DNA of 62,323 bases, taken from positions 1 to 62,323 of the IMG/VR virus record IMGVR_UViG_3300032174_000007. The stretch is one strand, 5' to 3'. A program made the position numbers and the translations under genes. The notes under the pieces are model-generated. The model made no database searches, was not told the origin of the DNA, and saw only the letters and a program-made list of their open reading frames with translations. Origin of the DNA: a virus. Taxonomy: Duplodnaviria; Caudoviricetes. Of the stretch, positions 12,906-37,120 are shown in pieces. How positions within the stretch are numbered: position 1 is the first letter of the stretch; each line of letters opens with the position of its first letter.

Positions 12906-13015
12906 TTTGGATCAAGGCTTGCGCGGAGTGTTTGTTTGCTCTGAGCGGTCAGGGATCGCTAGATACAAACCTGCGATCACCAGTCGGGCTTCCAGAGCGG
13001 TCATTGTCCCAAATC
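12906..13015 (-). mobile_element. Minimal (near-empty) L/R cassette
   Basis: L and R separated by ~20 nt; encodes MTALEARLVIAGLYLAIPDRSEQTNTPRKP. Confidence 0.85.
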
Positions 13016-13393
13016 ATCCTTCTTCTCGTTCTGCTTCAAAAGCCGCGAGTTGCGCAATTGTCGCTCGATGTCGGCTTCCTCCAGCATCTTCATGTAGAGC
13101 TCGGGGTGACGCCTCATCATACCGTCAATCAGCGCGCCGATGTTTCGCTCACCCAGATGCAGGTAGGTCCGATGCGTATCCGAGCGGCCCTGGTCGTCGG
13201 TTGCCACAAAAGTCTCGCCCATGTGGCAGGATTCGAAAACAAGGCGGTAAAGCAGATCCCGGCTATTGGGGTGGTTCATCCACACCCGCACGGTGTCGTC
13301 GTCCTGGCGCTCGCGGCGCGCCTTCTCCTTGGCGGCATTATCGACGGCGACGGGATCGGACGCGTCGTAGACGCCGAAGTCGTCAGGCATCAA
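13001..13393 (-). CDS. Bbp19-like protein
   Basis: RDLLYRLVFESCH..F..GERNIG..P.LY.KM motif; stop codon supplied by cassette L end. Confidence 0.7.
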   Translation of the reverse strand: MMPDDFGVYDASDPVAVDNAAKEKARRERQDDDTVRVWMNHPNSRDLLYRLVFESCHMGETFVATDDQGRSDTHRTYLHLGERNIGALIDGMMRRHPELYMKMLEEADIERQLRNSRLLKQNEKKDDLGQ

Positions 13394-13838
13394 TCACCTT
13401 CCTCACCGCCGGCAGGATATGCTCCGCCTGCTTCGCCATCTCGTACTCCGCCCATTTCACAAACCCCTTGATCATGTTCTTGTCGTTGCCAAATCCCGTG
13501 ACGTGCAGCCATTTCTTGAATCCCGGCATGGCCACCTCGCACACGTCCACCATCTGGGCGGTTAGTTTCAGGGTGAGGTCGAGATCGGCGCCAAAGTATT
13601 TCATCGCTGCCTGCGCGCCGCCGCGATCGGGGCCGAGGTCGAGCGCGTTGCGGAAGTGCCAGAGCGCGTGCGGGGCCTTGGCTGCCGCCTCCAGAAGACC
13701 AGCGCGATACTTGCGGTCCACCTCGATCGGAATGCCGCGCTGGCGGGTGGCCTTGTCGTAGAAATAGCCGAATGGCTCGCCGGGACCGGTGCGGTTGAGC
13801 ATCATCGGGACGGAACTGAAATGCGGGCGAACCATCAA
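13383..13838 (-). CDS. Hypothetical protein
   Basis: Coupled ORF in head operon. Confidence 0.6.
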   Translation of the reverse strand: MMVRPHFSSVPMMLNRTGPGEPFGYFYDKATRQRGIPIEVDRKYRAGLLEAAAKAPHALWHFRNALDLGPDRGGAQAAMKYFGADLDLTLKLTAQMVDVCEVAMPGFKKWLHVTGFGNDKNMIKGFVKWAEYEMAKQAEHILPAVRKVIDA

Positions 13839-14404
13839 TGCCTCACATACCCCGGTGGCAGAATCAGCGGCGATGCCGGCTTGGCATCATGGTCGTAGAG
13901 CCGCGCCCGGTATTCGCCCTTGCGCCGTTCCAGGTGCTGCGCCATCAGCGACCATCTGTAATCGCTACGGAAGCACGCCGCGAGTTGCCGCATGCCGCCG
14001 ATCGCCTGCTCGATGCCGCTGAGGAACCGATCGCGCGCTTTGCGCCACTGGTAGGGATCGCCGCGGACCTGCGCAGTCTGTTGTTGTTTCATAGTCAATT
14101 CGATACCGGCAAGACTACAGGCTGTCAGGCGCATGCGATCGAATATCTCGCCCGTGTCCCGCCAGGCCTTGCGATTCTTGATCGTGTGGCAGGAGAGGTG
14201 CATGCACGCCTCGGCGCACATCTTCAAGCCCTCGATCACCCGCTCGTACGACTCCCGCTCGATCATGGCGGTGCCGCGCGGATCGGGCAGCGGGTCGCCG
14301 TCCTTGCCGCGCTGGACGAGGTTGTTTGATGGATCGACCATGACGCCGTGGGTCGGGTCGAAGACCATCTTGGCGCGCGGGTCGGCGTTGGTGTCGTCGG
14401 TCAT
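13835..14404 (-). CDS. Hypothetical protein with internal repeat
   Basis: RBS GAGGA before ATG 14404. Confidence 0.65.
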   Translation of the reverse strand: MTDDTNADPRAKMVFDPTHGVMVDPSNNLVQRGKDGDPLPDPRGTAMIERESYERVIEGLKMCAEACMHLSCHTIKNRKAWRDTGEIFDRMRLTACSLAGIELTMKQQQTAQVRGDPYQWRKARDRFLSGIEQAIGGMRQLAACFRSDYRWSLMAQHLERRKGEYRARLYDHDAKPASPLILPPGYVRH

Positions 14405-14631
14405 CGGAAGTCCTCGACATCGCCGCCCAACGCGACACCACACCGGATCAAAGTATCGCCACAGCGCGACAGCACTCGCTTCCACCACGGAGTTCGCTTT
14501 CGTGGACCGTAGAGCGCAAGCAAATCTTCCATTGCGCGAATCTGATCAATCAAATCAGAATTCAGTTCGCGTTCGATCAATGGCCGCATACGATCGGCAT
14601 ATTCCGCGAGAGTAATCGGGTTTGCACTCAT
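14401..14631 (-). CDS. Small moron-like hypothetical protein
   Basis: Lower GC; ATGA overlaps at both ends. Confidence 0.55.
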   Translation of the reverse strand: MSANPITLAEYADRMRPLIERELNSDLIDQIRAMEDLLALYGPRKRTPWWKRVLSRCGDTLIRCGVALGGDVEDFR

Positions 14632-16457
14632 GCGCCCGCTCCCGCACCCTGCCCACCGGTCCCAAGCATCGCCTGCAGCGCGCTGATCCCACCGCCAGTA
14701 TCCGTCTGCGAGAGCGTCTGTGCAGCGGTTGCCACCGCCGGCGCCACATGGGTTGCCGCTTGCGCTGCCTTCTCCTGCTGCATCTGCTGATCGCGCGTCT
14801 GGCGGATGGCGTTCATCGTGTCCTGATCGTTCCAGTCGTCGGGCGGGAAGTCAAGCTTGTCGCCGTAGTCGCGGATCACCTTGTCCTTGTTGAAGTTGTC
14901 GAGCGTGCCCGGCATCGCCGCTTCCATGCGGCCGGCAAACGATAGCGTGCGCTCGATGCCCGCAGTGGCGGCAGCATTCTGAATCTGGGCAAGCTTGCTC
15001 ACAAACTTGATCTGGATCGGCACGTTGCGCAGCGAAGCCGGCTTGGGCGGCACGATCCCGCGCCGCGCCATGATGCTCACGATCCGATTGATGCCGTGGG
15101 CGTCCTCGCGCAGATTGCGCTCGATCACCGGCCCAAGCCGCAACAGCTTCTCGCCGCGGCGTTCGTTCAACTCCAACTCGTTCCTCGGCTGTACACCCTC
15201 CATGTCGGAGATGGCGAGGAACACATCATTGAAGAACCAGCGCTCGACCTTGTGCTCGATGTTCTCGATCACCTTCTCAAGCTCGGCCACCTGCGGATTG
15301 ACCGTGTAGGTTGGCCGCATCCCCGTGTCCTTGCCGAGGTTGGCGACGTAAGTCACGCGTCCAGGCAATATCGAGGACGGTTCATTCTTGAGCGTGGCAT
15401 CCGCCAGCATCGGCGGGCGCACCATCTTCTCGATCGCTTCGTTGAGCCTTCGCACCATGCGGTGCAGCTGCATGACATCGGGCAACGCATCCATCCCAGG
15501 CGAGCGGCCGTAAGGGTCGTTGCCGCGCGTGTTCCACAGCGGACACATGTAGGGCCGCTCATGGAAGCCGCGCACCGAGAGCGGCTGCGGGGTCGATTTC
15601 CCACGCAGCCAGTAATACTCACGATAGGCGTAGCCGCCGGGGACCACGCCGAGCGTTGGCTTCTGCCCATACATGCTCGCGGGATAGTTCGGCTCGATCG
15701 AATGCCCAACGATCGATTCGGTTTCGAGGTTGGCGCCTTTGGTGTTCCATAACTCGCCGACATCGGTGCCCTGCACGGCTTTGGGGCCGAAGCGCCCCAC
15801 GATCTGGCGCGTCGTCTGGGTGAACTCGCGGTTAAAGACGATGTTCTGCGAGCCGGCGCCGCGCCCGAGGTAATATTCGCCGGCGCATGGATTCTGGCAG
15901 TCGATGACGTAGCGCGAATCCTCGTAGATCAGCATCGGCCCGGTGCCGAAGGTCGCCTCGTCCTCGTACATCTGATGCTTGGAGTCGTAATAGTTCGAGC
16001 CGGCGAGCACGTCGTAGAACCGCTGCTCGAACTCGGCGAACCAGCGTTTGGCGGTGGTGTCGAGCTCGAAGCCCTGGATGCCGGGCTCGAACTTGACCCA
16101 CTTTTTTGTGGGCGAGGAGAGCCCATCCATCATGCCGGCGGCGCAGACGAGGATAGCCTGAGTCGGGGTCGAATCCACCACGTCCTGGTTGATCGGCAGC
16201 CCGCGCGTCATGTTGTTGGGCGTTATGAGCCAAAAATATCGTCGGGGAAGCATGTTGGCCGCGATCTCTCCCCAATGCATCCACCACGGCGTGCGCCAAT
16301 TGCGCAAGCCCAAGAGCACCTGCTCCAAGTAGGCACGCATGTCCTCCCAATCCTGGTTTGAGGTCCAGGTGCGGAATGGAATGGTGGCAGGCGTGCGCGC
16401 CAGGAGCGAGGCATCGGCGCGCTCGTAGAAAACGGAGGCTTGGTCGGTGGTGAGCAT
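14628..16457 (-). CDS. Portal (head-tail connector, Bbp21-like)
   Basis: AAGMMDGLSSP, FGTG, YGRSPGMDALPD, EKLLRLGPVIER motifs. Confidence 0.93.
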   Translation of the reverse strand: MLTTDQASVFYERADASLLARTPATIPFRTWTSNQDWEDMRAYLEQVLLGLRNWRTPWWMHWGEIAANMLPRRYFWLITPNNMTRGLPINQDVVDSTPTQAILVCAAGMMDGLSSPTKKWVKFEPGIQGFELDTTAKRWFAEFEQRFYDVLAGSNYYDSKHQMYEDEATFGTGPMLIYEDSRYVIDCQNPCAGEYYLGRGAGSQNIVFNREFTQTTRQIVGRFGPKAVQGTDVGELWNTKGANLETESIVGHSIEPNYPASMYGQKPTLGVVPGGYAYREYYWLRGKSTPQPLSVRGFHERPYMCPLWNTRGNDPYGRSPGMDALPDVMQLHRMVRRLNEAIEKMVRPPMLADATLKNEPSSILPGRVTYVANLGKDTGMRPTYTVNPQVAELEKVIENIEHKVERWFFNDVFLAISDMEGVQPRNELELNERRGEKLLRLGPVIERNLREDAHGINRIVSIMARRGIVPPKPASLRNVPIQIKFVSKLAQIQNAAATAGIERTLSFAGRMEAAMPGTLDNFNKDKVIRDYGDKLDFPPDDWNDQDTMNAIRQTRDQQMQQEKAAQAATHVAPAVATAAQTLSQTDTGGGISALQAMLGTGGQGAGAGA

Positions 16458-16524
16458 CAGAAGAACAGCACCAGATAGAATCCGAAGATGAAGCCCTGCA
16501 CGAACAGCCTTTGATTGCGCGCGC

Positions 16525-16758
16525 TCATCCGACCAAGCTCGCCTTGCTGGTCGTCGGCGGCACCAAATCGCCCCGCGGGCCGGTGCTGTCGGTCCCGCCC
16601 ATGCCGCCGCCCTTGGCGAGCGCCGCGGCCCGGGCCTGGTTGGCGCCCGCCTGCTGCACGCTCATATTGGCCATGGTGGGCGGGATCGCGGCCGGGGGCA
16701 CCGGCGGCGGAGGTGGCGGGGTCATCTGCTGACCGCCTATTCCGAAGATTCCTCCCAT
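16525..16758 (-). CDS. Small pre-portal virion protein
   Basis: Pro-rich, ends KASLVG, typical of the gene preceding the portal in this group. Confidence 0.7.
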   Translation of the reverse strand: MGGIFGIGGQQMTPPPPPPVPPAAIPPTMANMSVQQAGANQARAAALAKGGGMGGTDSTGPRGDLVPPTTSKASLVG

Positions 16759-16949
16759 CAGACAAACCTCACATGAATTGATCCATCTTCTTTCTCAATA
16801 GCGAATGCCGCCATATCGACGGCATCAAACAGCCGTGCCCGCCATAGGGCGCGCTCAGCATCAGTTAACCTGTCGGATTGGATAATCCGCGCCAGCGCTT
16901 CAATTGTAGCATCTGCAGCATCATGCAACGCGCAGCATCGGTAGCCCAT
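16758..16949 (-). CDS. Moron ORF starting inside 31-bp repeat copy
   Basis: ATG overlaps the repeat's TGA; 63 aa. Confidence 0.5.
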   Translation of the reverse strand: MGYRCCALHDAADATIEALARIIQSDRLTDAERALWRARLFDAVDMAAFAIEKEDGSIHVRFV

Positions 16950-17204
16950 CACTTGCTCCTGCATGGATCGTAATCGCCATTCCGAAGATACCGGCCATCA
17001 CACAGACGCCTTTCGTAAGCGCTGTAGAGCGGTCCAATCAAAGTCCTGCTCGAAGTCTCGCAAATACTCGTGCAGAGCGCGCAACTCGTCGTCTGATATT
17101 GCGCGATTGAATGACAGCAAGATTGCTTTGTCATTGTCAGCCATTCGGCTCACTCCTTGAACACGGATTTCATCCATCACTTGCTCCTGCATGGATCGTA
17201 ATCG
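16946..17204. repeat. Two identical 31-bp direct repeats (16946-16976, 17174-17204), with a degenerate third copy at the terminase 3' end (~17364-17394)
   Basis: CCATCACTTGCTCCTGCATGGATCGTAATCG twice; encodes DYDPCRSK* versus terminase EYDPCQTK*. Confidence 0.9.
16998..17177 (-). CDS. Moron ORF between the 31-bp repeats
   Basis: ATG overlaps the repeat's TGA; 59 aa. Confidence 0.55.
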   Translation of the reverse strand: MDEIRVQGVSRMADNDKAILLSFNRAISDDELRALHEYLRDFEQDFDWTALQRLRKASV

Positions 17205-17366
17205 AAGGTATGGCACAGTCCCGGTGTCTGATGCTTCACGTAGGCGTCCAGTTGCGCATTGCGCAGCGCCCATTCCGGATCGGGTTGGACATCGGCTTGC
17301 TTCGGTCCCGGGCGCGAGCCGTTGGCGATGCTCAACGGCGAAGAACGTAGCGAGATGGCAACGCCG

Positions 17367-18113
17367 TCACTTGGTCTGGCAGGGGTCATATTCAAACACA
17401 TGCCCTTGCGGCTTGGTGCCCATATTCCAGAGCGAAGCTGGCCGCACCGTCGCCCGCTCGATTCCAGAGACCACGAGGTAGCGCATGGCGTCCATCAGAT
17501 GGTCGTTCTTCTTGACGAGCTTGCCTTCCTCGTCGCGCTGGTAGAAGCGCAATTCCTCGCGCCATTTGGCGAGCGATTTGAAGGCGCGGAGACGGCCCGT
17601 CGAGAGTCGTACCCAGGTTTCCGTCAGCCCGTTCTCGACCCCGTTGTCGGCTGTGGTGAGGGTGTCAAGTCCGAGTTGAATATATGTCGCCAAGAGCTGC
17701 TCGCCGTCGCGCTGTCCTCGGCCGCGTGATGCTGGATCAATAACCCCCGGAATCCAAATTCCTCTTGCCCGGATGGCGGCGGCGTGAACTGGCGGTTCCG
17801 CGTGCATACGATAATGCTCATCGTAGAGGTACACAACATCGGTGTTCGGGTCCCTTGCTGCCCACAGTGCCGCGGTGACGTTCCAGCCCACATCAAGCGC
17901 ATAGCATTGCTCGAACCATTCCGGGATCGCGAATGGGTCGCAGAGGATATCGGATTCCGGCACCGGATAGATGGCGCCGGACCCGAGCTGCGGGATGCCG
18001 CGCGAGCGGGCGTCGAGCTGGTAGGGCGGGATGCCCTTGGCTTCCTCGCGCTTCTGCTCGTGGGAGAGATGGGGAACGTCGTCCCAGCCGGCGTTGGCGA
18101 CGAATTTGGACAT
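17367..18113 (-). CDS. Terminase large subunit, C-terminal nuclease part
   Basis: WDDVPHL..ARSRGIPQLGSGAIYP, ALDVGWN, NDHLMDAMRY; ATG 18113. Confidence 0.88.
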   Translation of the reverse strand: MSKFVANAGWDDVPHLSHEQKREEAKGIPPYQLDARSRGIPQLGSGAIYPVPESDILCDPFAIPEWFEQCYALDVGWNVTAALWAARDPNTDVVYLYDEHYRMHAEPPVHAAAIRARGIWIPGVIDPASRGRGQRDGEQLLATYIQLGLDTLTTADNGVENGLTETWVRLSTGRLRAFKSLAKWREELRFYQRDEEGKLVKKNDHLMDAMRYLVVSGIERATVRPASLWNMGTKPQGHVFEYDPCQTK

Positions 18114-18313
18114 CAGGCAGGTCGCCAAAATAGCGGCAGGAAGAATGGGCGATGCCAAGTTCCAGTCATCCGAGCTACTTCGCGATCACGCAGAGGCACA
18201 AACTGCCAGAATTCACCATCGATAAACCTGAATGTCTGCCCCCACGAGGTACGGCCAGACAAAGCATAGATTGGACTCCCGTCGCGCGGAGCGGTCTCAA
18301 ACGGCTCCATCAT
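18113..18313 (-). CDS. Small ORF inserted between terminase halves
   Basis: PFETAPRDG motif common in small phage proteins; coupled at both ends. Confidence 0.65.
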   Translation of the reverse strand: MMEPFETAPRDGSPIYALSGRTSWGQTFRFIDGEFWQFVPLRDREVARMTGTWHRPFFLPLFWRPA

Positions 18314-19161
18314 TCACCTCCGCCCATGCCCCGCCAGCGCTCAATGATCGCATCTAGTATTCGCGGCGTCACGAACTCCCGCACGACCTCGCTCATGCCT
18401 TCGTTGGGCGTGAACGTCGAGATCAGGTGCCCCGATCGCGTCATCAAGCGGATGCGCTGCTCGATGTAGATTGCCAGCGGCGGCTCCTCATCGTCCCAGA
18501 TGATATCACGCTCGGTGCCTTCGAACGATCCGCGGCCCTGCTGATAGGACTTGAAGCCGAGCTCGGAGAAGCCGCCATTGCGGTGCCTGATCTTGATCGT
18601 GTCGATGAAGTCGGCAATGCCGCGCTTCCACGAGATCGAGCCGTCGATGATGTCCTCGCCCGGAATGAGTCCGGTCCCGCGCACCGTCTTGCGCCGGCCT
18701 ATCCAGGTAACGGGGCCTAGAAGCTTCTTCTGCAGGATGTCGCGGGTCGGCTCGTTGAGCTTGCCGCAGGCCCACACGTCCACAGGCCGATCATAACGCA
18801 TGCCGGGCCACCAGTCGGGATAGCGGCCGGTCAGATGCAGCGTGGTCTCGTAGCCGCCGGCACCTTCGGTCTTTCCAATCCGGTTTGCGGCCAGAAACAG
18901 CCGCTCGGTGTGGGGCGACCCGTCGCAATCCTCCGGGCACGTGACCATCGGCTTGTGCTGGCCGCCGGCTGCGAAGAACTCCATGTGCCGCGCGTAGAGT
19001 TCCCGTCTTAGCGGCCCGGTGTCGGGATAGAAGCGATAAAGCGCCCGCCGCGGTTCAGCCTGGGCTACGCTCTCTCTCAGCTTGCGGGCCAACAGGAGCC
19101 GGCCCTGCGGCGTCATCGACGACGCCAAGCTCGAGAACTTCTGCAAGAGCGCGCTGGTCAT
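18310..19161 (-). CDS. Terminase large subunit, N-terminal ATPase part (P22 gp2-like)
   Basis: Walker A AANRIGKT, HLTGRYPDWW, Walker B IIWDDEEP, TFTP. Confidence 0.9.
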   Translation of the reverse strand: MTSALLQKFSSLASSMTPQGRLLLARKLRESVAQAEPRRALYRFYPDTGPLRRELYARHMEFFAAGGQHKPMVTCPEDCDGSPHTERLFLAANRIGKTEGAGGYETTLHLTGRYPDWWPGMRYDRPVDVWACGKLNEPTRDILQKKLLGPVTWIGRRKTVRGTGLIPGEDIIDGSISWKRGIADFIDTIKIRHRNGGFSELGFKSYQQGRGSFEGTERDIIWDDEEPPLAIYIEQRIRLMTRSGHLISTFTPNEGMSEVVREFVTPRILDAIIERWRGMGGGE

Positions 19162-19642
19162 CGATGCTCAGCATGTTGAAGATGTTGACATCGCGCCGCT
19201 CGGGTTCGGGCAGTCCTCCCAGATGCTTGAGCAGCGTGAAGTTGGCCTGGTTCTTGTCGTAGAGGTGGTATTGCAGCGGCTTGCCCTCGGCGTCGAAGGA
19301 GGTGTAGGCGATCGCTGCGGCGAGATCACGCGGCAGTGCTGCAATCGGGATCAGCTTGCCTTCTTGATCATAGTAGTCCTGGCTGTTGGCACGGCCGACC
19401 CGATCGATTTCGACCACAATCCGGGCGGCGCGGACATCGGCGTATTCCAGCGCCTCCTTGAACCGCTCGCGGATGCGGGCGCGGACTTCCTTGCGGTTGG
19501 AGAGGCGCCGGGCGTTGGCAGGAGCTGGCGGATAGCCGGCGCGCTTATAGGCTTCGAGCGCAGGCGATTTCTCGCCGGCAAGTGAGAGTTCCACGAACTC
19601 CTGCGCGAATTTCTCCCAAGACAGCCGTGCCAGCGCACCCAT
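19055..19642 (-). CDS. Terminase small subunit
   Basis: EKFAQEFV..AYKRAGY..ANARRL..EVRARI; LYDK..LLKHLG. Confidence 0.8.
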   Translation of the reverse strand: MGALARLSWEKFAQEFVELSLAGEKSPALEAYKRAGYPPAPANARRLSNRKEVRARIRERFKEALEYADVRAARIVVEIDRVGRANSQDYYDQEGKLIPIAALPRDLAAAIAYTSFDAEGKPLQYHLYDKNQANFTLLKHLGGLPEPERRDVNIFNMLSIDDQRALAEVLELGVVDDAAGPAPVGPQAERERSPG

Positions 19643-19669
19643 AAAACCACGCGGGCATGTCACCCGCTC

Positions 19670-20083
19670 CTATCCGTAGCCTCCGCGTCCGGGGTTATAT
19701 CGCACTCGCTCGAAGCGGCGCAAGGGGTAGGCGGGACCGACGAGTTCATGGGAAAGGTCGTCTGCGGCCGGCGGTGGGGTGACGAAGAGGGGCGGAGCCG
19801 CGGATTCAGCGGCTTCTTCGACCCGGGATTCCAGAAGCGCATCCGTTGAGTTGGTTGATTGATCTGGATCAATGCCAGTCTGTGGGTGCCGGTCGTCCTG
19901 CGCGGTCACCAGACGCCGGGCGATATCGTCCCGCGGCATCGCCACCAGCCCGTTCATCATCTTGGTAAGGAGCGACCGCACCCAGGCGGCGTTGTCCAGC
20001 CCCTCGCGCTCGGCGCGTTCGCCGATCCAGGCCTCGAGCTCATCGCCGAGGCGAATCACCATGCGCTTGGTCAATGCGGCCAT
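19670..20083 (-). CDS. Ribbon-helix-helix-like protein containing a degenerate cassette R end
   Basis: KRMVIRLGDELEAWI..A.REGL..A.WVR; AGGAGG RBS; R-like sequence at 19861-19910. Confidence 0.6.
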   Translation of the reverse strand: MAALTKRMVIRLGDELEAWIGERAEREGLDNAAWVRSLLTKMMNGLVAMPRDDIARRLVTAQDDRHPQTGIDPDQSTNSTDALLESRVEEAAESAAPPLFVTPPPAADDLSHELVGPAYPLRRFERVRYNPGRGGYG

Positions 20084-22444: not shown

Positions 22445-23779
22445 TCATGGTTGGATCACGAGAGGGGAGGGCGGGCGGAGAGGGTCATCGGTCATCAGAG
22501 GATCTTGGTGGGGCGGTTCGATTGCTACGTCGCAGAGCATGCCGCCTTCATTCTTGATGCGGCGCTCGGCCATCGCAGCATACGCGGGATTAAGCTCGAT
22601 CAGGATGGCGTTGCGCTGCAACCGATCGGCGACGAGGCCGGTCGTGCCGGCGCCGCCGAAGGGGTCGAGGACGGTGCCGCCGAAGGGGCAGCCCGCCACA
22701 ATGCAGCGCTCTGCGAGTTCCGGCGGGAAGGTTGCAAAATGCGCTTCGCTGAATGCTTGCGTCGCCATCGGCCATACCGAAAGCGGCGCGGGCTCGTAAT
22801 TTCGCAGGAAGCGCCCGTTTGCAACCTGCTCTGTTCGCTCCATTTGATCCCAGCGGTCGTTGAATCCTTGATGCCGACGGCTATGGCCTCGCTGCTTATC
22901 GATGAGCTTGCCAGCTTCGCGGCCATTGCGATGATGCGATCCGTGACCGCCTGGTCCGGTGTCCCAGCCGTCTGGCATTTTTATTCGCTTGTTGCCCACG
23001 ACTCGGCGTTTGCCGGGGTTGCCTTCGACATACGAGCCGCCGCGAAAAGTGGCGGCGTCTTCGTCCGAAGTGCGACCTTGCTTGATCGCCGCAGCGTCGA
23101 AATAATACGGCATCCTGATCCAGCGCGGACCAAGCTCGCCGGTCGTGACCATCACCACCTGCTCGGACAGATCGGGATTTGTTTCGATGGTGCCGGTATC
23201 GCGGGCGCGGAAATAATCGGAGATATTTGATTTTGCGAGCAACCAGATCTTTTCATGCGCGGCTGATGGCCGGATGGCGCCAGACGAATCGGGCATCGGA
23301 TTAGTTTTTCCCCAGATGTTTTCCGCCTTCACCCACCAGCCATCGTCTTGAAGGGCGATGGCGAGCCGATTTGGAATCATGCAGAGGTCGCCAGGCTTGA
23401 GCCGCCCACCCGCACGAACTCTGTTGCCGGCGTCGGGCCTATAGTTCTCTTTCGCTCGGCTGTTTTTGTTTCGATTGGCGTTTGCGAGCGAATATTGCAG
23501 ATTGCCATCCGTATTGAGACCGCTCGCAATCGTCGCGTAGCAATCACCGTAATTGAGCCACAGCGTTCCAGATGACGTGAGGATGCGGCGGACCTCTCGT
23601 AACAGGTCAACCATTAGATCTAGATGCTCGCCGAGCGAGGCTTCCAGCCCGATCTGTCCAGCGACACCGTAGTCCCGCAACCCCCAATATGGGGGGCTCG
23701 TCACCACGCAATGCACGGATTCCGCAGGCAGTGTGCGCAGCACATCGCGACAATCCCCGACGATGATCCGCACGCTCAT
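22445..23779 (-). CDS. N4-C/N6-A DNA methyltransferase (beta class)
   Basis: VTSPPY, HFATFP, VLDPFGGAGTT. Confidence 0.92.
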   Translation of the reverse strand: MSVRIIVGDCRDVLRTLPAESVHCVVTSPPYWGLRDYGVAGQIGLEASLGEHLDLMVDLLREVRRILTSSGTLWLNYGDCYATIASGLNTDGNLQYSLANANRNKNSRAKENYRPDAGNRVRAGGRLKPGDLCMIPNRLAIALQDDGWWVKAENIWGKTNPMPDSSGAIRPSAAHEKIWLLAKSNISDYFRARDTGTIETNPDLSEQVVMVTTGELGPRWIRMPYYFDAAAIKQGRTSDEDAATFRGGSYVEGNPGKRRVVGNKRIKMPDGWDTGPGGHGSHHRNGREAGKLIDKQRGHSRRHQGFNDRWDQMERTEQVANGRFLRNYEPAPLSVWPMATQAFSEAHFATFPPELAERCIVAGCPFGGTVLDPFGGAGTTGLVADRLQRNAILIELNPAYAAMAERRIKNEGGMLCDVAIEPPHQDPLMTDDPLRPPSPLVIQP

Positions 23780-23780
23780 G

Positions 23781-23832
23781 CTGAGGGCCTCTGATCACCA
23801 GTCGGGTTCCCGAGCGGGACTTGTCCCATAAG
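23781..23832 (-). repeat. Cassette L end upstream of methyltransferase
   Basis: ATGGGACAAGTCCCGCTCGGGAACCCGACTGGTGATCAGAGGCCCTCAG; encodes MGQVPLGNPTGDQRPSA* coupled to the MTase ATG. Confidence 0.85.
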
Positions 23833-23837
23833 CTTTT

Positions 23838-24799
<962 letters not shown>

Positions 24800-24803
<4 letters not shown>

Positions 24804-26020
24804 TCGGCAGCCTCGCTTGCGGCTTCGGCTTCGTTTCCCCATGCCGACCAACCGGGACGTGCCGCACCGCGGCAGTTCAACTCAACCTTGGGCAACGTCG
24901 GGAACAACCGCTCAATCATCTCCGGGAAAAACTCGGGTTTCTCAGAGTGAGTATGAACGAGCGCCTCAATGAGTGAGTTTTCCTGCGTTCCGGGCGCCGG
25001 AGCCGGTATCTTTCCGCGCGTGCCAACCAGGAGAATTTCGTGGCAATTGCGGAACCAATAGCCGGTTCCAACCGCTGACACACACGTTGACGTGCCAGCT
25101 AATTGCCGTAGCTTCCGCCATATCTGGTGGCTGCAATAATCGAAACCCCAGGCCCCCATGACTGTCAGAGCGTGCGGAAGCATGGGCACTGTGGCCCACA
25201 GGAACAGCACGCAGTCGTCGGCCGCAATGCTCGGCACGTCCCGGGAGGCGATAACCTCGGTACATGAGGTCGGATAGTGGTTGTCGGCAGCGCGATCCAT
25301 GCCAGTCTCGCGCGACCAGGGCTCGAAACGCCATTCGGGATCCGCGAGGATCACGCCGAATTTCTGCTGCGGCAGCGCACACTGAATGCCGCCCAGAACG
25401 CGCTCGCGGATGGCGCGGCGTTCCTTCTTCTCCTGCTGGCGCTCGGCGTGGGCCTCCTTGAGAACCGTTTTGTCGCCATCGATCGTGGCAACTGCAATCC
25501 GCTTGGCTTTGGCGATCTTGGCCTCTTGGGCGTCGAACGGAAGGGCGGCGAGTTGCTGCCAGCGGGAGGATTGAGTGCGGCTGATGTCGAGGTCGGAAAG
25601 TGTAGCAGCGTGCGACTCTTTCGGCCGCCCCTTTGGCCTCGCATCCCGCTCCGCAAGCTCGCGCAGGATTTCGCCGGATCGGATTTCGGCACGCAGTTTG
25701 ATCTCGGTCGCGCGGTCAATCAGTTCACGGTCCTTTGCCTGTTGAGCGTAGGTCTTGAGCGCAACTGCCTTGTCGCGGATGTCCTTGACCTCATCGATAG
25801 CCACGGCTTGGGCGAGGGCCTGGCGGGCGGTTTCGTACCATCCGAATTGGTTGGCTTGAACCGGGACGAGGGCGGTCTTGCGCTCCGCCTTCTCGATCGC
25901 GCGCCGCACCTTGTCCTTGTCCCAATTCATCGCCTTGGCGATGCGGATATAGCCCCAGGAGGGGTGCTCGGCCTTGAGGCGGAGGGCGCGGGTTGATTGA
26001 TTTGAATCAAGGCTTGGCAT
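24800..26020 (-). CDS. MT-A70 family adenine methyltransferase with N-terminal HTH/helical region
   Basis: [38 protein letters not shown]; probable ATG inside cassette R end. Confidence 0.85.
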
Positions 26021-26070
26021 GTGGGGGTGGGAGCTCTGAGCGGTCAGGGACCGCTTCTGATTATCGGTGG
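25999..26070 (-). mobile_element. Degenerate minimal cassette
   Basis: R end CCTGACCGCTCAGAG..CAAGCCTTGATTCAAATC; L remnant CCCACCGATAATCAGAAGC. Confidence 0.7.
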
Positions 26071-26522
26071 GCAATCCGCGCATGATGCGAGCAATAGCTG
26101 CCATCCCGCATCGCGGCCCCGCAGAACACGAAATCCGCCTCTTTGGGGTTGCCTATCGGCCAGCGGCAGTGCTCGGGCTCAAGCGCAAATAGGGGGACGC
26201 CGACGGCCGGGACCTCAACCGGTAGGTCGATCACTCGCTCGGTAGGCAGCATGCCCGAATCGGGGTCGATTGGGCTGCAGGTCGGGAAACGCGACCCGGC
26301 CACAAAGCGATCGGGCCGCGGCGGCTTGTTGGCTTGCTTCAACTCCCGCTTGTGGGCACGGGCGACCTTGACCTGCTCCATGGTTTGGCAGATGCCGAGA
26401 CGGTGCAGCTTGCCGATGACGGCGCTGCGGGAAATGTTGAGCCTTTTGGCGACCTCGGCGCATGACAGCCTGCGGGCGTTGAGGGCTTTCAGCTGGTCGA
26501 TCAGTTCCTGCGTCCACACCAT
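26061..26522 (-). CDS. gcrA: GcrA cell-cycle regulator homolog
   Basis: [26 protein letters not shown]; CRWPIG.P...F.FCG..YC..H. Confidence 0.9.
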
Positions 26523-26557
26523 GGCCGGTCCTCCATTGTGGGAGTTCACGTTAAAAC

Positions 26558-26761: not shown

Positions 26762-26817
26762 GGGGGAAGGTGTGCCATAGGATTGAGGGTAATGCAAGCG
26801 GAAATGTTTTAAGGGGT

Positions 26818-27113
26818 AGGATTTATGGACAATGACCGCTCTGGGAACCCGACTGGTGATCGCAGGCCGGAGGTTGAATTTGACAATTATGGGTCCCTCG
26901 TTGTTCGCCGCGGCGGTGCCGAATTTCGGCTCGTGCAAGATGGGAGAGTTATCCGCACAACCTTAAGTCGGCCGGACAAGCGCGGCTTTCGGACACCTCA
27001 CTACCGGGCGGTAAAGAGCCGATTTGCTGATCAAGTGCGCGATGCCATTCTCTCAATGATTCCTGACCGCTCGGAGCCTTCACACCCGTCGCGCACGCCT
27101 TGATCCAAATCCT
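26818..27113 (+). mobile_element. L/R cassette with 92-aa cargo ORF (26825..27103)
   Basis: AGGATTTATGGACAATGACCGCTC.. / ..CCTGACCGCTC..CCTTGATCCAAATCCT; ORF MDNDRSGNPTGDR..PDRSEPSHPSRTP. Confidence 0.88.
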
Positions 27114-28833: not shown

Positions 28834-29739
28834 TCAGCAGCCTGCTATCGCGGCGTCGAAAATGTCGGGATTATCCCGGTTATTGTAGCGGAATTGGAAT
28901 TCCGCGACGTACAGCGGCATGTATTTCTTGCTGACCTTGTGGAAACTCCCGACGATCCCGCGCTTAAAGATAGACCAGAAGCCTTCGATGGTCTGAGTGT
29001 GGACCGCACCGACCACGTATTCACGCGCCGAATGATTGACGGTCTCGTGCGGGAAGTCTTTGAGGGTCTTGTACGCGGGCAATTCGTCGGTCGCCAGCAG
29101 GCTGACCTTGGTCGATACGGCTTCATAAACGAACTGATGCAAAGCCTCTTTGGTGGCGCGCTCAAGCACGCGCGTCACCACGTTGCCCTTGCGGCTGATT
29201 GCGCCAGCAATTGGAACCTTGTTGCCGGAACCGCCGCGCAACCCGCTCTTGCCGCCGTGCTTATTGATGCTCTTGCCGCCGATGTAGGTCTCATCGACCT
29301 CCACGATGCCCATGAGTTTGCAGAATTCCTTGTCCTGCAATGCGGCTCGGATGCGGTGGCACATGTACCAAGCGGTTTTGAGCGAACCGAAGCCCATGTA
29401 GCGGTGGACTTGCCGCGCGCTGATGCCTTTCTTGGCGGTCAGCATGAGATGGATGACGCGGAACCATTGGCGAAGATCAACCTTCGTGTTCTCGAAGATG
29501 GTCCCGACCAGATGCGAGAACCGATAAGCGCCGCCCTCCCGGCAATCCGGGCATTCCCATTTGAATTGCATGGTCTGGAGCGGATAGACGCGCTCGCTTC
29601 CGCAGCGCGGGCAGGTGACACCCTTCGACCAGCGGCGGGCGATCAAGTAGCGGTCGCAAGCCTCTTCATTCGGGAACAGCCGATCGAACTGTCCGACCGT
29701 CATTTGCATGATTTGGGGCGGCTGTTTTGCGCGGGCCAT
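28834..29739 (-). CDS. IS1595-family (ISXO2-like) DDE transposase
   Basis: Zn ribbon CPRC..CPDC, VEVDETYIGG, TDE, HTQTIEGFWS, YVAEFQFRYN. Confidence 0.95.
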   Translation of the reverse strand: MARAKQPPQIMQMTVGQFDRLFPNEEACDRYLIARRWSKGVTCPRCGSERVYPLQTMQFKWECPDCREGGAYRFSHLVGTIFENTKVDLRQWFRVIHLMLTAKKGISARQVHRYMGFGSLKTAWYMCHRIRAALQDKEFCKLMGIVEVDETYIGGKSINKHGGKSGLRGGSGNKVPIAGAISRKGNVVTRVLERATKEALHQFVYEAVSTKVSLLATDELPAYKTLKDFPHETVNHSAREYVVGAVHTQTIEGFWSIFKRGIVGSFHKVSKKYMPLYVAEFQFRYNNRDNPDIFDAAIAGC

Positions 29740-29943
29740 GGGTCTCTCCCTATCGATGAAAGGACCGTAGCACATCGAAATCTATCCGTCAAGAGGGGGT
29801 ACATCGCCACTGCGAAAGCTCGTATTCGCGGCTCGCACAAGTGGGGGAACGGCCGGGCGGGATGACGCGCTATGTGCCGCATGTGATGAGGCCGAGCGCG
29901 TACTGCTCGATCTTCAGTAGAGACGTGACAATAGGAGGGGACA

Positions 29944-32405: not shown

Positions 32406-32486
32406 GTTCGGTTCTCCCATCCGCCCAGAATTGGACGCGAAATACGCTTACACTGGAAAGGTGTGCTTTGCGTGCAACAGTCAAAG

Positions 32487-32900: not shown

Positions 32901-32901
32901 G

Positions 32902-33099
32902 TCACACTCCCGCGCCAGGATTGACGACGACAGGTCCTTTACCGATGCGGGCTTCGATGGCGTTGAGTCGCGCGTTGGTTTGCTTGCGCCAATCCGCGAG
33001 CGCGGCAAATCCGGCCTGCATGTCCTCCCAATCATTGCCGAGGGCGAACGGGCCGGAGGCGTTGGCGATGTCTTGGGCGAGCTTGTCGAAGGCGTCCAT
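32902..33099 (-). CDS. Small hypothetical protein
   Basis: AGGAG RBS; coiled-coil tail. Confidence 0.55.
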   Translation of the reverse strand: MDAFDKLAQDIANASGPFALGNDWEDMQAGFAALADWRKQTNARLNAIEARIGKGPVVVNPGAGV

Positions 33100-33314
33100 G
33101 GTGGTCTCCTATGGTGAGGTTGAATCTCTTATCCACCGAAACGGCGGCGAGTGATAGGGGCGGCAGAACCACCAGCCACAGGTGAAATCCCAACCCAATA
33201 GCCACACCAGGATCGGAATTCCGTTGTCTGTGCGTTCGGCCGATATGTACCACGAGGAACGCCAGCCGCTCAATTCCAAGCGGTCGGTCCAGCGCGTCTC
33301 CGGCATGACAACGC

Positions 33315-34220: not shown

Positions 34221-34238
34221 TTGGTTTCCTTTTGATTT

Positions 34239-35599: not shown

Positions 35600-35678
35600 A
35601 GTCCCTCATGCTGATCGTCATCCCGCAGATAGGCAACTTTTCTATCCCCACGCCGAGAAGCCAGCTGGAATGCTGCAA
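35400..35678 (-). CDS. Small protein with C-terminal TM helix (holin/antiholin-like)
   Basis: YVKWVVSAVPVAAALSSILKAWW. Confidence 0.5.
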   Translation of the reverse strand: MQHSSWLLGVGIEKLPICGMTISMRDYDEEVAKMPRRRKTTAQEIQQWRYGSEIDRRRHASRQSAIRYVKWVVSAVPVAAALSSILKAWWHG

Positions 35679-36316
35679 TTGAACGGGCTCGCGCCGACAT
35701 TCAATGTACTGTTCCCGCCGCTGGAATCAAACAGTGTATACGGGAAAGCCGGATTGCCGGCAAACACTGCCGAGATGTCGATGCCGCCGACGCCGGTTGC
35801 GGGATTTGCAGCACCGCTGTTGTTCCATATTCCGCAGTTGAGGCTGTACCACGCGAGATTGGCGGTCAGGTCAACGGCAAAGTCTGCTGGTTTTGCGCTC
35901 GAAAAGCTTTGGCAGGAGATCGGAAATGTATTGTGATACCAGAGCGAGCCTGATCGATTAGGCAGGCATCCGAAGGCAGCGGTAGTATTGGCGGCCGTAA
36001 GCACCTGTGCAGCTGTTGCAAATCCGATGTATGTGTTGGCTCCGAAATCCGCATTCTTGGCGATTTCGAAAATCCATTTGCCCGAGCTGTGCGATTTGGT
36101 CCCGCGCACGCCGGCCGTCGCGCTGGTCGGATCGGTGGCGATGAGATTGCCGCCCGACAACGTGACTGCTGCCGCCTTGTCGGTCGGGCTCCAGGTCGAG
36201 AAGGTTGCTCCCGCTGGCAGCATCCATGAAGTGAACAGAAATCCTTGCGCGAGCACCGAATAGGAGACGCAGGCGAGACCAATCGCCAGCAGCGCTCGCC
36301 TGACGAAAGGCATCAT
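35642..36316 (-). CDS. Signal-peptide SPRY/ConA-like beta-sandwich protein
   Basis: MMPFVRRALLAIGLACVSYSVLA|Q; TWSPTDK..TLSGGNL..SGKWIFE..PAGFSAW. Confidence 0.7.
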   Translation of the reverse strand: MMPFVRRALLAIGLACVSYSVLAQGFLFTSWMLPAGATFSTWSPTDKAAAVTLSGGNLIATDPTSATAGVRGTKSHSSGKWIFEIAKNADFGANTYIGFATAAQVLTAANTTAAFGCLPNRSGSLWYHNTFPISCQSFSSAKPADFAVDLTANLAWYSLNCGIWNNSGAANPATGVGGIDISAVFAGNPAFPYTLFDSSGGNSTLNVGASPFNCSIPAGFSAWG

Positions 36317-36993
36317 TGCAGCGCCTTCACCAGATAGGTCGAGACGGTGTTGATCCTGGTGATCTGCAGGAGGAAAACGTGGCCGTTGGTGGTATCGAAG
36401 GCATCCCCGGTGTTCGAGCCGACGGTGAAGCCTGTGAGTGTGAGCGTGCCGGCGCTGCCGTTGTTGGTCACCAGGATGAGGCACGAGGCGCTACTGGCGG
36501 GCGCGGTCAGGGTCGCGTTGCCGCCGTTGGTGTAACTCTCGAGCGGTCCCAAGCCGCAATCGATCGTGAAGCTGCCGGCCCCGGCCACGGGCGGGGTGAC
36601 GTTGGCCCCGCCGGAGAGCGTCTGGTCGGCGGCGGTCAGGCTCGCGAGCGCCGCGTTGCAGCCGATGGTGCCGGGCACATAGGCGAGCGCAGAGTTGGCC
36701 CCGGTGCAGGTCGGGATCGGGAGGCCGACGGCGGTGTTGAGATTGTTGCCCACCCAGGTCGTGTTGTTCAGGAGCGGAGGCAGGCCACCGGGACCGAGGA
36801 TAGCCTGCTGCACGAAGGCCGTCGAGGCGCAACGATTATCGCTAGTGCCGGGCGGAGCGGTCGGGCAGATGGTGTTCTGCGCCCAGGCGGGGAGGATAAC
36901 CGGCCGCACCGGCCCCGGCGAGCCCACGAAGAGCAACGCTAGCAGCCAGAGTATGAGGCCGGCGCCAAAGATGATATTTCGGAGTCTGACCAT
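36313..36993 (-). CDS. Signal-peptide tail-fibre-like protein
   Basis: Hydrophobic leader AWA|Q; PTAPPGTSD..ASTAFVQ fibre motif; 6 Cys. Confidence 0.7.
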   Translation of the reverse strand: MVRLRNIIFGAGLILWLLALLFVGSPGPVRPVILPAWAQNTICPTAPPGTSDNRCASTAFVQQAILGPGGLPPLLNNTTWVGNNLNTAVGLPIPTCTGANSALAYVPGTIGCNAALASLTAADQTLSGGANVTPPVAGAGSFTIDCGLGPLESYTNGGNATLTAPASSASCLILVTNNGSAGTLTLTGFTVGSNTGDAFDTTNGHVFLLQITRINTVSTYLVKALQ

Positions 36994-37006
36994 CCGAGCG
37001 GCTCCA

Positions 37007-37120
37007 AGATTTGGATCAAGGCTTTGCTTGCGGTTGCCTCAACTCGGAACGGTCACCAAGCGCCCCGGATGAGGGCCTCTGATCACCAGTCGGGTTCCCG
37101 AGCGGAACTTGTCCCATCAA
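37007..37120 (-). mobile_element. Minimal (empty) L/R cassette
   Basis: Encodes MGQVPLGNPTGDQRPSSGALGDRSELRQPQAKP (37016..37117). Confidence 0.88.

Follow-up and report, generated by a model that had tools for sequence, protein, structure and literature searches.

The question raised by this locus is why two short, cargo-free repeat units in a phage genome each encode a small peptide that ends in a shared reading frame. The stretch of DNA that we analysed (the window, 62,323 nt) is a complete 62-kb podophage genome (CheckV completeness 100%). The phage comes from soil and its host is probably alphaproteobacterial. The units are built from two different blocks, L and R, each about 45-55 nt long and up to 95% identical between copies.

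The two minimal units

Unit E3 lies at 12903-13016 on the minus strand (L 12965-13016, a spacer, R 12903-12958) and unit E4 at 37004-37126, also on the minus strand (L 37070-37126, R 37004-37062). As copies of one repeat, they are far beyond chance. A sequence-only reading had assigned peptides of 30 and 33 aa to these units, and both were reproduced exactly on the minus strand. The coordinates given there (12906-13015 and 37007-37120) are spans of the elements, and the ORFs lie inside them, at 12912-13004 (30 codons and TGA) and 37016-37117 (33 codons and TGA; starting at a second ATG, 37129, the product has 37 aa). As had been proposed, the two ORFs enter through different frames of L and leave through a common frame of R (..DRSE..KP and stop). 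The ORF of E3 starts at the ATG within ..CAATGACC.. and reads ..ARLVI.., while that of E4 starts at an upstream ATG and reads ..PTGDQRP... The self-complementarity described for E3 was found as a 6+6 palindrome, GATCGC-13 nt-GCGATC. E3 also holds a second ORF that the earlier reading did not list (12949-13017, 22 codons); it uses the canonical ..PTGD.. frame and terminates at the TGA that opens R.

Both stretches consist of abutted L and R blocks, with 23-25 nt from GGTGATC to TGACCG, and elsewhere the blocks enclose about 100-900 nt of cargo. This agrees with the suggestion that the minimal units are the cargo-free state. The cargo site had been placed between a sequence in L and TGACCG, which is roughly right: beyond TGGTGATC, L continues for about 10 nt (..AGGCCCTCA), and R begins about 6-10 nt upstream of TGACCG.

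The retention of an open frame had been taken as a sign of selection. We compared it with chance by keeping L and R fixed and randomising the spacer at its observed length or at one nucleotide less or more (20,000 trials per copy). An ORF beginning at an ATG in L and running through to the stop of R arose in 54% of the trials for E3 and 27% for E4. The two minimal copies alone are within chance (about 0.54 x 0.27), and since such ORFs are frequent with random spacers, their frame retention is not evidence of selection by itself. In one of the two, the canonical frames of L and R are not in phase, and the ORF stays open only through a second L frame that has an ATG and no stop.

The TGA within L of E3 is the stop of the upstream gene (13001-13393) and overlaps the ATG of the 30-aa ORF (ATGA). 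Compared with six related contigs, in which the flanking genes overlap, E3 is an insertion. E4 is surrounded by an 18-nt direct repeat on the minus strand (36989-37142; copies at 36989-37006 and 37125-37142, 17/18 identical), which is the RBS and ATG of the downstream gene (36313-36993) duplicated upstream of L. Its score was reached by 0 of 300 shuffles. No flanking direct repeat was found at the other 12 of the 13 L-R pairs, where scores were like those of shuffles. At both minimal units the downstream gene has an RBS of its own, of the GGAG type and 19-22 nt past the R stop, which makes a need for coupling less than obvious at these two sites. The predicted RNA folds of three minimal copies were no better than those of shuffled sequences (z = -0.93, +0.16 and +1.17), and therefore no structural role was seen for minimal copies.

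Copies of L and R in the phage genome

An nhmmer profile together with a repeat search gave 11 L and 10 R matches in the window (best E = 1e-17). The variant L copies at 6081-6158 and 8376-8453 were recovered only via an 11-mer with one mismatch. In total the window holds 8 L..R pairs, 3 solo L and 2 solo R, all on the same strand as the neighbouring genes.

L begins at the stop of the upstream gene or just past it, and comprises a start codon, a leader of roughly 15 codons, and GGTGATC followed by (A/G)GAGG. R is a fixed 13-codon tail whose stop lies within TGATCCA; the next gene starts 5 to about 30 nt after this stop. The length of R was 39 nt in 15/15 full copies (5 contigs), with no indels despite a highly variable middle, and this variable part is mosaic between copies.

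Four cargo units lie on the minus strand. E1 (161-433) has a variant L (371-433, start MTDTA..), a Cys-rich cargo and R at 161-219; its in-frame ORF (173-421, 82 aa) ends 5 nt before the next ATG. E2 (8261-8465) joins the variant L at 8376-8453 to R at 8261-8316 in an in-frame ORF (8271-8465, 57-64 aa), with the ATG of the next gene again 5 nt past the R stop. E5 (57043-57892) lies between the genes for virion proteins of 867 and 2530 aa and encloses two cargo ORFs (57565-57789 and 57053-57514) between L (57837-57892) and R (57043-57099). The stop of its L-frame ORF overlaps the ATG of the first cargo ORF, the second closes at the R stop, and the ATG of the 2530-aa gene follows 5 nt further. 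In E6 (60804-61124; L 61059-61124, R 60804-60860) the ATG of L is mutated to ATA, and the DUF551-like cargo (60855-61067) has its ATG 2 nt past GGTGATC and, as its stop, the first TGA of R. The other two units are on the plus strand, each with an in-frame ORF: E7 (26816-27113; L 26816-26871, R 27058-27113; ORF 26825-27103, 92 aa) opens a rightward gene block, and E8 (45213-45620; L 45213-45267, R 45565-45620) encodes 129 aa (45221-45610).

The solo L copies are on the minus strand. L at 4679-4731 is fused in frame to a C-5 DNA methyltransferase (3667-4731, ATG at 4725), whose ATG overlaps the stop of the upstream gene 4725-5513 (TGATG). L at 23782-23836 (unit 23776-23836) forms a 17-codon leader ORF (23776-23829) with a stop that overlaps the ATG of an N6/N4 DNA methyltransferase (22445-23779; ATGA). 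The frame of the variant L at 6081-6158 (unit 5982-6158) closes at 5982-5984, where the stop shares nucleotides with the start codon of a 52-aa ORF (ATGA). One solo R (25995-26053, minus strand) stands 4 codons past the in-frame TAA of a GcrA homologue (26061-26549). The other is a partial R (46681-46707, plus strand, 3' half only) and ends the ORF 46398-46697 at the canonical R stop.

Insertion at gene junctions

We compared the window with five complete or near-complete related records, the capsids of which are 81-83% identical to that of the window phage. The L core had no exact match in any of the five; with one mismatch allowed there were 3 matches, against 1 for a reversed-pattern control. 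At five junctions the units are insertions exactly where the relatives have adjacent or overlapping genes. The relatives have a TGATG overlap at the E5 junction, TAATG at the E6 junction, and TGAATG or TAAATG at the junction of the C-5 methyltransferase, which together with a gp49-like gene (3534-3845) is inserted between genes adjacent in the relatives. At the E2 junction, the relative G004 has TAA, 12 nt with GGAGG, and then ATG; in the window, R ending in ..TGATCCAA and followed by ATG stands ahead of the orthologous gene. The comparison confirmed that variable, non-essential genes differing between close relatives are flanked by L and R.

Further L/R copies were found with nhmmer in contigs L001, L088, L139, G410, L288 and L289, and these too share the strand of the adjacent genes. 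G410 is a more distant phage contig (capsid 46% identical), and its units are located at other junctions. No L/R copies were present in 401 sampled alphaproteobacterial genomes; the units so far occur in phage contigs only.

Reading frame and phase

The frames of L (..TGD..) and R were in phase in 9 of 13 pairs (binomial p = 0.0088), a count that includes units where cargo and tags are one ORF and so cannot separate translation-through from a protein with conserved ends. A further 3 of the 13 pairs were at +1, and there the L-frame ORF closes at the TGA that opens R. When the L frame was followed in 19 copies, it reached the R stop in 8, closed at the first TGA of R in 3 and was fused to a long protein in 2. 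In 4 copies its stop overlapped the ATG of the following ORF (50 aa or longer; offsets -1, -1, -1 and -5), and 2 copies behaved otherwise. The layout of a coupler, with an own start, an SD-like site inside and a stop at the next start, is present in all four L copies that neither join the cargo nor close at R. The next ATG follows 5-6 nt past the R stop in 5 of 15 R copies. The earlier suggestion that open frames avoid polarity fits this spacing, the siting at stop/start junctions and the phase of the pairs.

Constraint on nucleotides

The invariant codons are ACT, GGT, GAT, AGG and CCT. In a set of 10 long phage genes, four of these codons are rarely used (ACT 6%, GGT 12%, AGG 7%, CCT 9%). 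Invariant blocks written in rare codons argue for a constraint on DNA or RNA and not on the peptide. Synonymous alternatives at GGT and GAT were found in 0 of 19 L copies, and ACC replaced ACT in 1 of 19. The last CCT of the R tail was CCT in 15/15 copies; the first CCT position held CCT in 10, GGT in 3 and GAT in 2 of the 15. The excess of variation at third codon positions of R was weak (permutation p = 0.11; entropies of 0.61/0.70/0.93 for the three codon positions). Further, the 5' half of L (first 8 residues) is read in three frames (MDNDRSG, MGQVPLG and MTDTA), and R is located after a tRNA-Pro gene in L288 as well as behind the TAA of the GcrA homologue in the window. Because of the rare invariant codons, the three L frames and the position of R after a tRNA and a stop-bearing gene, the bridge peptides are probably by-products and not the selected product.

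Two other viral contigs encode homologues of the E8 cargo with different termini, and phrog_1273 matches residues 20-111 of the 121-aa protein of L088. In four more metagenomic proteins, the two tags enclose central parts that are unrelated. As cargo homologues exist that lack the L/R termini, the blocks are add-ons to the cargo.

Complementarity to 16S rRNA

We used the 3' tail of Mesorhizobium 16S rRNA (..CTGGATCACCTCCTTTCT) as an alphaproteobacterial stand-in, which may not match the 16S of the host. Two 7-mers are complementary to this tail, GGTGATC in 17/17 L copies and TGATCCA in 11/16 R copies; finding a 7-nt complement within 17 nt of rRNA tail is only moderately improbable by chance. 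An ATG stands directly after TGATCCAA(A) in 5 of 15 R copies, including those ahead of the portal gene of G410 and the 2530-aa gene of the window.

Alternative explanations

The units could be a miniature non-autonomous transposable element mobilised by a transposase in trans, with minimal copies resembling MITEs and cargo copies a 'mobile insertion cassette'. Open frames and co-orientation would then merely reflect the insertions that a compact phage genome tolerates. That the units are insertions, numerous in the window genome, absent from five close relatives and patchy at different junctions in more distant contigs such as G410, suits this explanation, as do the repeat around E4 and an IS1595-family transposase gene at 28834-29775. 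This gene is the sole transposase in the window, however, and has no L/R-like inverted repeats around it. The outer ends of the units are weakly inverted by eye (GATTTGGGACAA.. against the complement of ..TTGATCCAAATC), but the outer ~14 nt of L resemble the complement of the R end only if two indels are allowed, and a repeat search (seed 6, 5 units) returned no such similarity. Nor is a duplication seen at 12 of 13 pairs, and the repeat at E4, with its 18 nt, is longer than one would expect of a transposition footprint. Solo L and solo R occur, the 401 bacterial genomes hold no copy, and the fixed 39-nt R, the rRNA-complementary 7-mers and the ATGA-coupled leader ORFs would be left unexplained. 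We therefore consider a transposable element unlikely.

Another possibility, quite improbable in our estimation, is that the blocks act as tags at the protein level. A leader ..TGD(Q/R)RP at the N-terminus and a tail (P/G)DRSE-x6-KP at the C-terminus would then serve the accessory proteins in, for example, virion targeting, processing or turnover, and minimal copies would be decayed or tag-only genes. There is a precedent, as internal proteins of T4 share a capsid-targeting leader. TGD.RP and DRS are (nearly) invariant in 8 aligned proteins with differing N-terminal halves, both motifs recur in the four metagenomic proteins, the R tail is constant in length, most pairs are in phase, and some R codons vary in a synonymous-looking way (TCN, CCN, GCN). 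These points are set against the rare invariant codons without synonyms at GGT/GAT of L, the three frames of the first 8 L residues, the non-significant codon periodicity and the R copies behind tRNA-Pro and the TAA of GcrA. In four copies, moreover, L is a separate leader ORF outside the cargo. Very unlikely, we think, is a role of L and R as homology arms only, that is, linkers for exchange of accessory genes between co-infecting phages with no part in translation. Near-identical blocks shared by phage contigs with different cargo, the mosaic middle of R and a PD-(D/E)XK nuclease gene are what such linkers would lead one to expect, and shuffling mediated by PeSLs is described as documented (PMC2839356). 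Homology arms do not account for the start codon, phase bias, stop-start overlaps, fixed-length R and rRNA complementarity, or for the arrival of a new L-R pair between overlapping core genes. No R-to-L circle junction was found in the contigs examined, although contigs cannot show rare forms.

Comparison with known systems

PeSLs, the 'mobile regulatory cassettes' of T4-type phages (Arbiol et al. 2010, PMC2839356; Comeau et al. 2014, PMC4122927), are described as short conserved motifs that occur many times per genome and flank non-essential genes without a known function that vary among close relatives, with gene shuffling attributed to recombination between motifs. As characterised in these accounts, a PeSL is a sigma-70 promoter with a terminator stem-loop, whereas L and R provide a start, a stop and a reading frame, differ from each other as ends and lie inside operons of essential genes. 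With the E. coli consensus alone, we found 8 promoter-like sites in the window, fewer than in shuffles and none in L/R blocks; the nearest (45144-45171) is about 40 nt upstream of L of E8. A terminator-like hairpin, weak, was present in one L only (E6, 61069-61087) and in none of the other blocks.

The SAS motif of Cluster K mycobacteriophages is 13 bp long. According to its description (Pope et al. 2011, PMC3203893), SAS is repeated in one orientation, lies upstream of the start codon and is linked to translation starts of some phage genes; its function is unproven and thought to concern translation initiation, and ESAS adds 17-bp inverted repeats. Compared with the SAS/ESAS described there, L and R contain coding leader and tail codons, a paired 3' module and insertion polymorphism, and have no sequence likeness to it. 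In bicistronic-design couplers (PMC5995908; bioRxiv 10.1101/2023.02.09.527918; for a review of translational coupling see PMC12548453), a short leader cistron with efficient translation is described that holds the second RBS and whose stop overlaps the second start, giving context-independent expression. This layout is seen in L at 23776-23836 and in L001 at about 8812-8870. Each has 17 codons, with GAGG or GGAGG located 8-9 nt upstream of an ATG that overlaps the leader stop as ATGA. The couplers of those sources are engineered, whereas L is natural, repeated, paired with a 3' module and mostly fused to cargo. A review (PMC10969869) covers MITEs with in-frame insertion, among them the Rickettsia palindromic elements, and describes repeats of about 100-150 bp that keep the ORF open and are translated within host genes. 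In contrast to these elements as reviewed, which lie inside genes and carry no cargo, L-R units lie between genes, have distinct ends, carry genes and show no clear terminal inverted repeats or target duplications. The units resemble integron cassettes in having promoter-less genes inserted singly at defined boundaries, 'empty' sites and context-dependent expression; integron cassettes are arrayed, whereas L-R units are dispersed over the genome. A tyrosine integrase (PF00589) was not found in the complete window genome, there was no attC-like imperfect palindrome, and R had no inverted repeats within it. Conserved GANTC sites are a feature of a MITE-type element, and have no counterpart here (GANTC in 4/17 L and 3/16 R copies).

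Proposed role of the units

We give about an even chance to the explanation that L and R are portable translated adaptors, by which insertions of accessory genes are tolerated between coupled genes without polarity. It builds on the observed anatomy of the blocks, their status as insertions, the phase bias, the constraint on nucleotides and the 16S complementarity. The L/R pair would form boundary modules around accessory genes, conserved as nucleotide sequence and laid out for ribosomes. L would run in frame into the cargo, or place its stop over the ATG of the cargo as a natural two-cistron coupler, and R would supply a fixed tail and a stop just ahead of the next start. With the leader of L and the tail of R, a minimal unit encodes an ORF of 22-37 codons that bridges the upstream and downstream genes. 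Judging from the sequence patterns, ribosomes that translate this bridge ORF and pair with the 7-mers would keep the downstream gene expressed without polarity. Further, the units may spread or swap cargo via recombination at L and R. Integrase, resolvase and Y1 transposase genes were absent from the window, and the scanned ORFs yielded no single-strand annealing protein.

In summary, these results allow a tentative, possible wider picture of natural plug-and-play cassettes in soil alphaproteobacterial podophages, in which L and R would combine translational adaptors with recombination arms, again without polarity. L, with its site complementary to rRNA, would be a leader cistron or be fused to the N-terminus of the cargo; R would add a fixed tail, a stop and a second such site ahead of the next start. 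Any gene might then be inserted in the overlap of two translationally coupled essential genes, tRNA genes included, and the same 45-55-nt modules might serve as arms for exchange of cargo between phages. If true, integrons and PeSLs would have a counterpart that is based on translation.

A repeat family with two unlike ends

The two cargo-less units of the window, E3 (12903..13016) and E4 (37004..37126), both on the minus strand, are the shortest in a family of repeats with two unlike ends. The left block, L, is approximately 45-55 nt long and terminates in ..CCGACTGGTGATC(A/G)(G/C)AGGCC. The right block, R, is approximately 50-55 nt long and consists of (C/G)(C/G)TGACCGCTCNGAG, 18 variable C/A-rich nucleotides and AAGCCTTGATCCAAA. 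Within the window, a profile search (nhmmer) detected 11 L and 10 R, and two more variant L copies were obtained with an 11-mer search that allowed one mismatch. The blocks form eight L..R pairs (units E1-E8, inter-anchor distance 34 to 765 nt), three solo L and two solo R. In all copies the orientation of the block was that of the strand of the adjoining genes.

Further blocks were identified on a small number of contigs of viral or soil origin: a leader-type L together with a minimal L-R in L001, two pairs in L088, two pairs in G410, whose capsid is 46% identical to that of the window, one L apiece in L139 and L289, and one R in L288. Four metagenomic proteins have both ends surrounding unrelated middles. 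A different contig of 1,987 nt from one of the soil DNA runs (X1; aligned to window 12906-12953 and 382-426) carries an E3-like R, 213 nt and an E1-like L, and so holds an additional unit in another genome. The assemblies of both soil runs, compared over window 1-20000, break at L/R copies, and over the same interval their contigs gave no reliable presence/absence joint.

A repeat of host genomes was rejected: the 131-nt E4 stretch had only chance matches of 22-41 nt in 401 alphaproteobacterial genomes (BLAST), and the one pair checked among these matches sits within an ordinary gene. Among the matches listed for a loose L pattern in metagenome and genome contigs, nhmmer upheld only L088 and L139. 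In IMG/VR, 64 loci have an L core and an R core 20-50 nt apart; the 63 new ones were chance matches according to nhmmer and only L001 was real. In the collection of minimal copies suggested by the sequence-only reading, L001 was the only addition, which gives three minimal copies (E3, E4, L001) and two near-minimal ones (E2 and G410 7254-7430) within the sequences searched.

The phage and its probable host

The window is an entire assembly, a single contig of 62,323 bp that is 100% complete (CheckV), and the phage was found in two soil metagenome runs. It is a tailed phage with a structural module of podovirus type. The module includes the GP7-type major capsid protein (10834-11868), protease/scaffold (11876-12892), portal (PF12236; 14628-16457), a 982-aa tail protein (565-3513) and internal virion proteins of 867 aa and 2530 aa. 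A tail fibre, a GH25 lysin and the small and large terminases are also encoded. Capsid identity to the closest isolated phages is under 40%. The window contained no tRNA genes, and a tRNA-linked integration site in it was rejected.

The phage encodes three DNA methyltransferases and one homologue of the GcrA cell-cycle regulator (26061-26549, minus strand), which adjoins the MT-A70 (24800-26104), N6/N4 (22445-23779) and C-5 (3667-4725) DNA methyltransferases. The GcrA family is not known outside Alphaproteobacteria; therefore the host is probably an alphaproteobacterium. Together, GcrA and the methyltransferases point to possible interference with methylation-dependent host control.

We observed several further features of the genome. 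The large terminase consists of two ORFs on the minus strand, an N-terminal ATPase (18313-19167) and a C-terminal nuclease (17370-18185), with a small ORF between them that is DUF551-like by eye. The same split is present in two relatives (G002 and G003), with gaps of differing length; the gene could be split, contain an intron or have taken up another gene. An ORF starting 5 nt past the R stop of E1 exits the left end of the contig (1-176, minus strand), and an ORF with an open 5' side enters its right end (61925-62323, minus strand). The right-end ORF has an orthologue in the relative G004 that comes after the tail gene; therefore the contig looks circularly permuted. The gene upstream of E4 (37123-38088) holds two 105-nt copies, 37633-37737 and 37762-37866, which are 75% identical and 129 nt apart.

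Units are inserted between genes that adjoin in relatives

We compared the window with five related records that are 100% complete (CheckV), three of them classed as linear, with capsids 81-83% identical to that of the window. The L core was absent from these records (0 exact matches; one-mismatch matches at control level), and neither L nor R was present in 26 capsid-centred loci. The units are insertions between genes: wherever both flanking genes have orthologues, these abut in the relatives. The relatives' junction is the overlap ATGGCTGA at E3, TGATG at E5, TAATG at E6, and TGAATG or TAAATG at the C-5 methyltransferase cassette, which is headed by L. At E2 it is TAA, 12 nt including GGAGG, and ATG; in the window this Shine-Dalgarno spacer is missing, and the orthologous gene starts 5 nt past the R stop (..TGATCCAA + ATG).

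E4 has an 18-nt direct repeat on both sides (17/18 identical), which is the ribosome binding site and ATG of the downstream gene. There were no flanking repeats at the other 12 pairs. Beside E6, the 867-aa virion gene has a 71-nt stretch at its start that recurs 307 nt upstream (60419-60489 and 60726-60796, minus strand, 80% identical). These copies enclose an 87-aa ORF (phrog_2920) directly downstream of the E6 R; the arrangement is an insertion in which the 5' end of the target gene was duplicated.

Reading frames through L and R

In 10 of the 19 L copies we found an in-frame ATG, GTG or TTG located 27 or 30 nt upstream of ACT in ..ACT GGT GAT... The L frame reaches the canonical R stop through the cargo in eight copies, and halts at the R-opening TGA in three, which are the three pairs with +1 spacing. 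In four copies its stop overlaps the ATG of the following ORF (50 aa or longer; offsets -1, -1, -1 and -5), and two of the four copies are leaders of 17 codons, located before the N6/N4 methyltransferase and in L001. The L frame is fused to long proteins in two copies, and the outcome was different in the remaining two. L and R frames were in phase in 9 of 13 pairs (p = 0.0088 against an expectation of one-third).

In each of the 15 full R copies the stop is preceded by exactly 13 codons, the middle six or seven being nearly free to vary. In five of the 15 copies, including those at the G410 portal gene and the 2530-aa gene of the window, the ATG of the next gene lies 5-6 nt past the R stop; in most others it is 11-30 nt downstream, several with a purine-rich site of their own. 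The genes downstream of E2 and E5 lack a GGAG-type site. R is also placed four codons past the TAA stop of GcrA. In L288 (2247-2382, plus strand), a tRNA-Pro(TGG) gene is followed by 4 nt, a full R block and, immediately, ATG. Therefore a tRNA, too, can serve as cargo, and R needs no ORF leading into it in order to work.

The sequence-only reading had described an open L-to-R frame in both minimal copies. The peptides quoted were exact on the minus strand (ORFs including the stop 12912-13004 and 37016-37117), L is entered in different frames and R left in the same one, and the GATCGC-13 nt-GCGATC palindrome is present in the first copy. The open frames of these two copies lie within chance: random spacers of similar length give an ATG-started L-to-R ORF in 54% and 27% of cases. 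The related suggestion, that polarity in operons is avoided, fits the evidence from the whole family, and it rests on that evidence and not on the two minimal copies.

As L and R hold four TGAs, a code in which TGA is sense was considered. It was set aside: table 11 already leaves the long genes open, and the TGAs of L and R match gene ends as judged from relatives.

The blocks are constrained as nucleotides

The invariant codons are rare in ten long genes of the phage (ACT 6%, GGT 12%, AGG 7%, CCT 9%). GGT, GAT and the last CCT are invariant, also in copies from other phages with fully diverged variable parts. One copy has ACC in place of ACT, and CCT, GGT and GAT all occur as the first R codon. 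Three frames are used for the first eight L residues (MDNDRSG, MGQVPLG, MTDTA/METSP), connected by compensating single-base indels, and cargo homologues elsewhere are without L/R ends. This, together with the R blocks placed after a tRNA and after the GcrA stop, puts the constraint on the blocks at the level of DNA or RNA. Entropy per codon position in R was 0.61/0.70/0.93, with no significant periodicity (p = 0.11). Most likely, translation runs through L and R and the peptides are by-products.

GGTGATC, present in 17/17 L copies, has as its complement GATCACC of a Mesorhizobium 16S rRNA 3' tail (..CTGGATCACCTCCTTTCT), and TGATCCA, present in 11/16 R copies, has TGGATCA of the same tail, which may not be that of the host. 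In E6, 2 nt separate GGTGATC from the ATG of the cargo. R copies with an immediate ATG read TGA + TCCAA + ATG, which we take to be the aligned Shine-Dalgarno spacing expected where a site pairs with this stretch of the 16S rRNA. This complementarity may be a clue to a nucleotide-level function of the blocks.

Proposed working and alternatives

L and R would best be read as portable, translated boundary modules. L would restart translation where the upstream gene ends and pass ribosomes to the cargo via fusion or stop-start overlap. R would lead ribosomes out of the cargo, stop them, and offer a ribosome-pairing site immediately ahead of the downstream gene. In the absence of cargo, a unit would then act as a bridge ORF of 22-37 codons, which, judged from the anatomy of the family, would fit polarity being avoided.

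Other identities were considered for the blocks. A structured RNA was rejected: the window has no Rfam match at gathering score, and three minimal copies folded no better than shuffled sequences. A promoter/terminator cassette was also rejected, as neither a sigma-70 promoter nor an intrinsic terminator falls on the L/R blocks, apart from a weak hairpin in the L of E6. Site-specific recombination would make the blocks attL and attR, and they do have a common 9-mer, TGACCGCTC; this was set aside, as integrase, resolvase and Y1 transposase were not found in the window, and the nhmmer matches included no unoccupied site in which the left part of L is joined to the right part of R. The window does contain an IS1595-family DDE transposase gene (28834-29775, minus strand) with a zinc ribbon and an ISXO2-like domain, around which clear terminal inverted repeats were not found. 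IS1595 was rejected as parent element because it is without L/R-like ends.

As to movement, the L-R units have doubtful terminal inverted repeats, and 12 of 13 pairs show no target duplication. The 18-nt duplication at E4 and the 71-nt duplication beside E6 both speak more for an origin by recombination than for one by transposition. For the promoter-terminator cassettes (PeSLs) of T4-type phages, exchange by homologous recombination is shown (PMC2839356). By analogy, it is plausible that homologous recombination at the 45-55-nt blocks exchanges the units.

Comparison with known systems and significance

Of the known systems nearest to L and R, PeSLs have the same genomic role but are made of transcription signals (PMC2839356). 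The start-associated sequences of Cluster K mycobacteriophages are repeats tied to starts, yet short, upstream and unpaired (PMC3203893). Engineered bicistronic couplers have the same layout as the leader-type L, and Rickettsia palindromic elements, which are in-frame MITEs, also come close (PMC10969869). As far as these sources describe them, none is a paired 5' and 3' translated module around cargo at stop/start junctions, and the literature searched held no account of phage repeats that are paired, translated and placed at gene boundaries. Based on their anatomy, L and R appear to be repeated gene-boundary modules accompanying accessory phage genes, and pairing and translation would set them apart from known ones.

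Phage genomes are dense with overlapping, translationally coupled genes, yet they keep gaining small accessory genes, among them methyltransferases, regulators and candidates for anti-defence. It is seldom asked how a gene can enter a coupled junction and leave the essential gene that follows expressed. Should L and R be no more than the surviving copies of a transposing repeat, they would still be a clean case of a phage-confined repeat family inserted at stop/start overlaps. If they are portable adaptors, they would explain how such insertions are tolerated, give searchable markers of accessory cargo in uncultured soil phages, and represent a natural, evolved counterpart of the hand-made, context-independent expression parts of synthetic biology.
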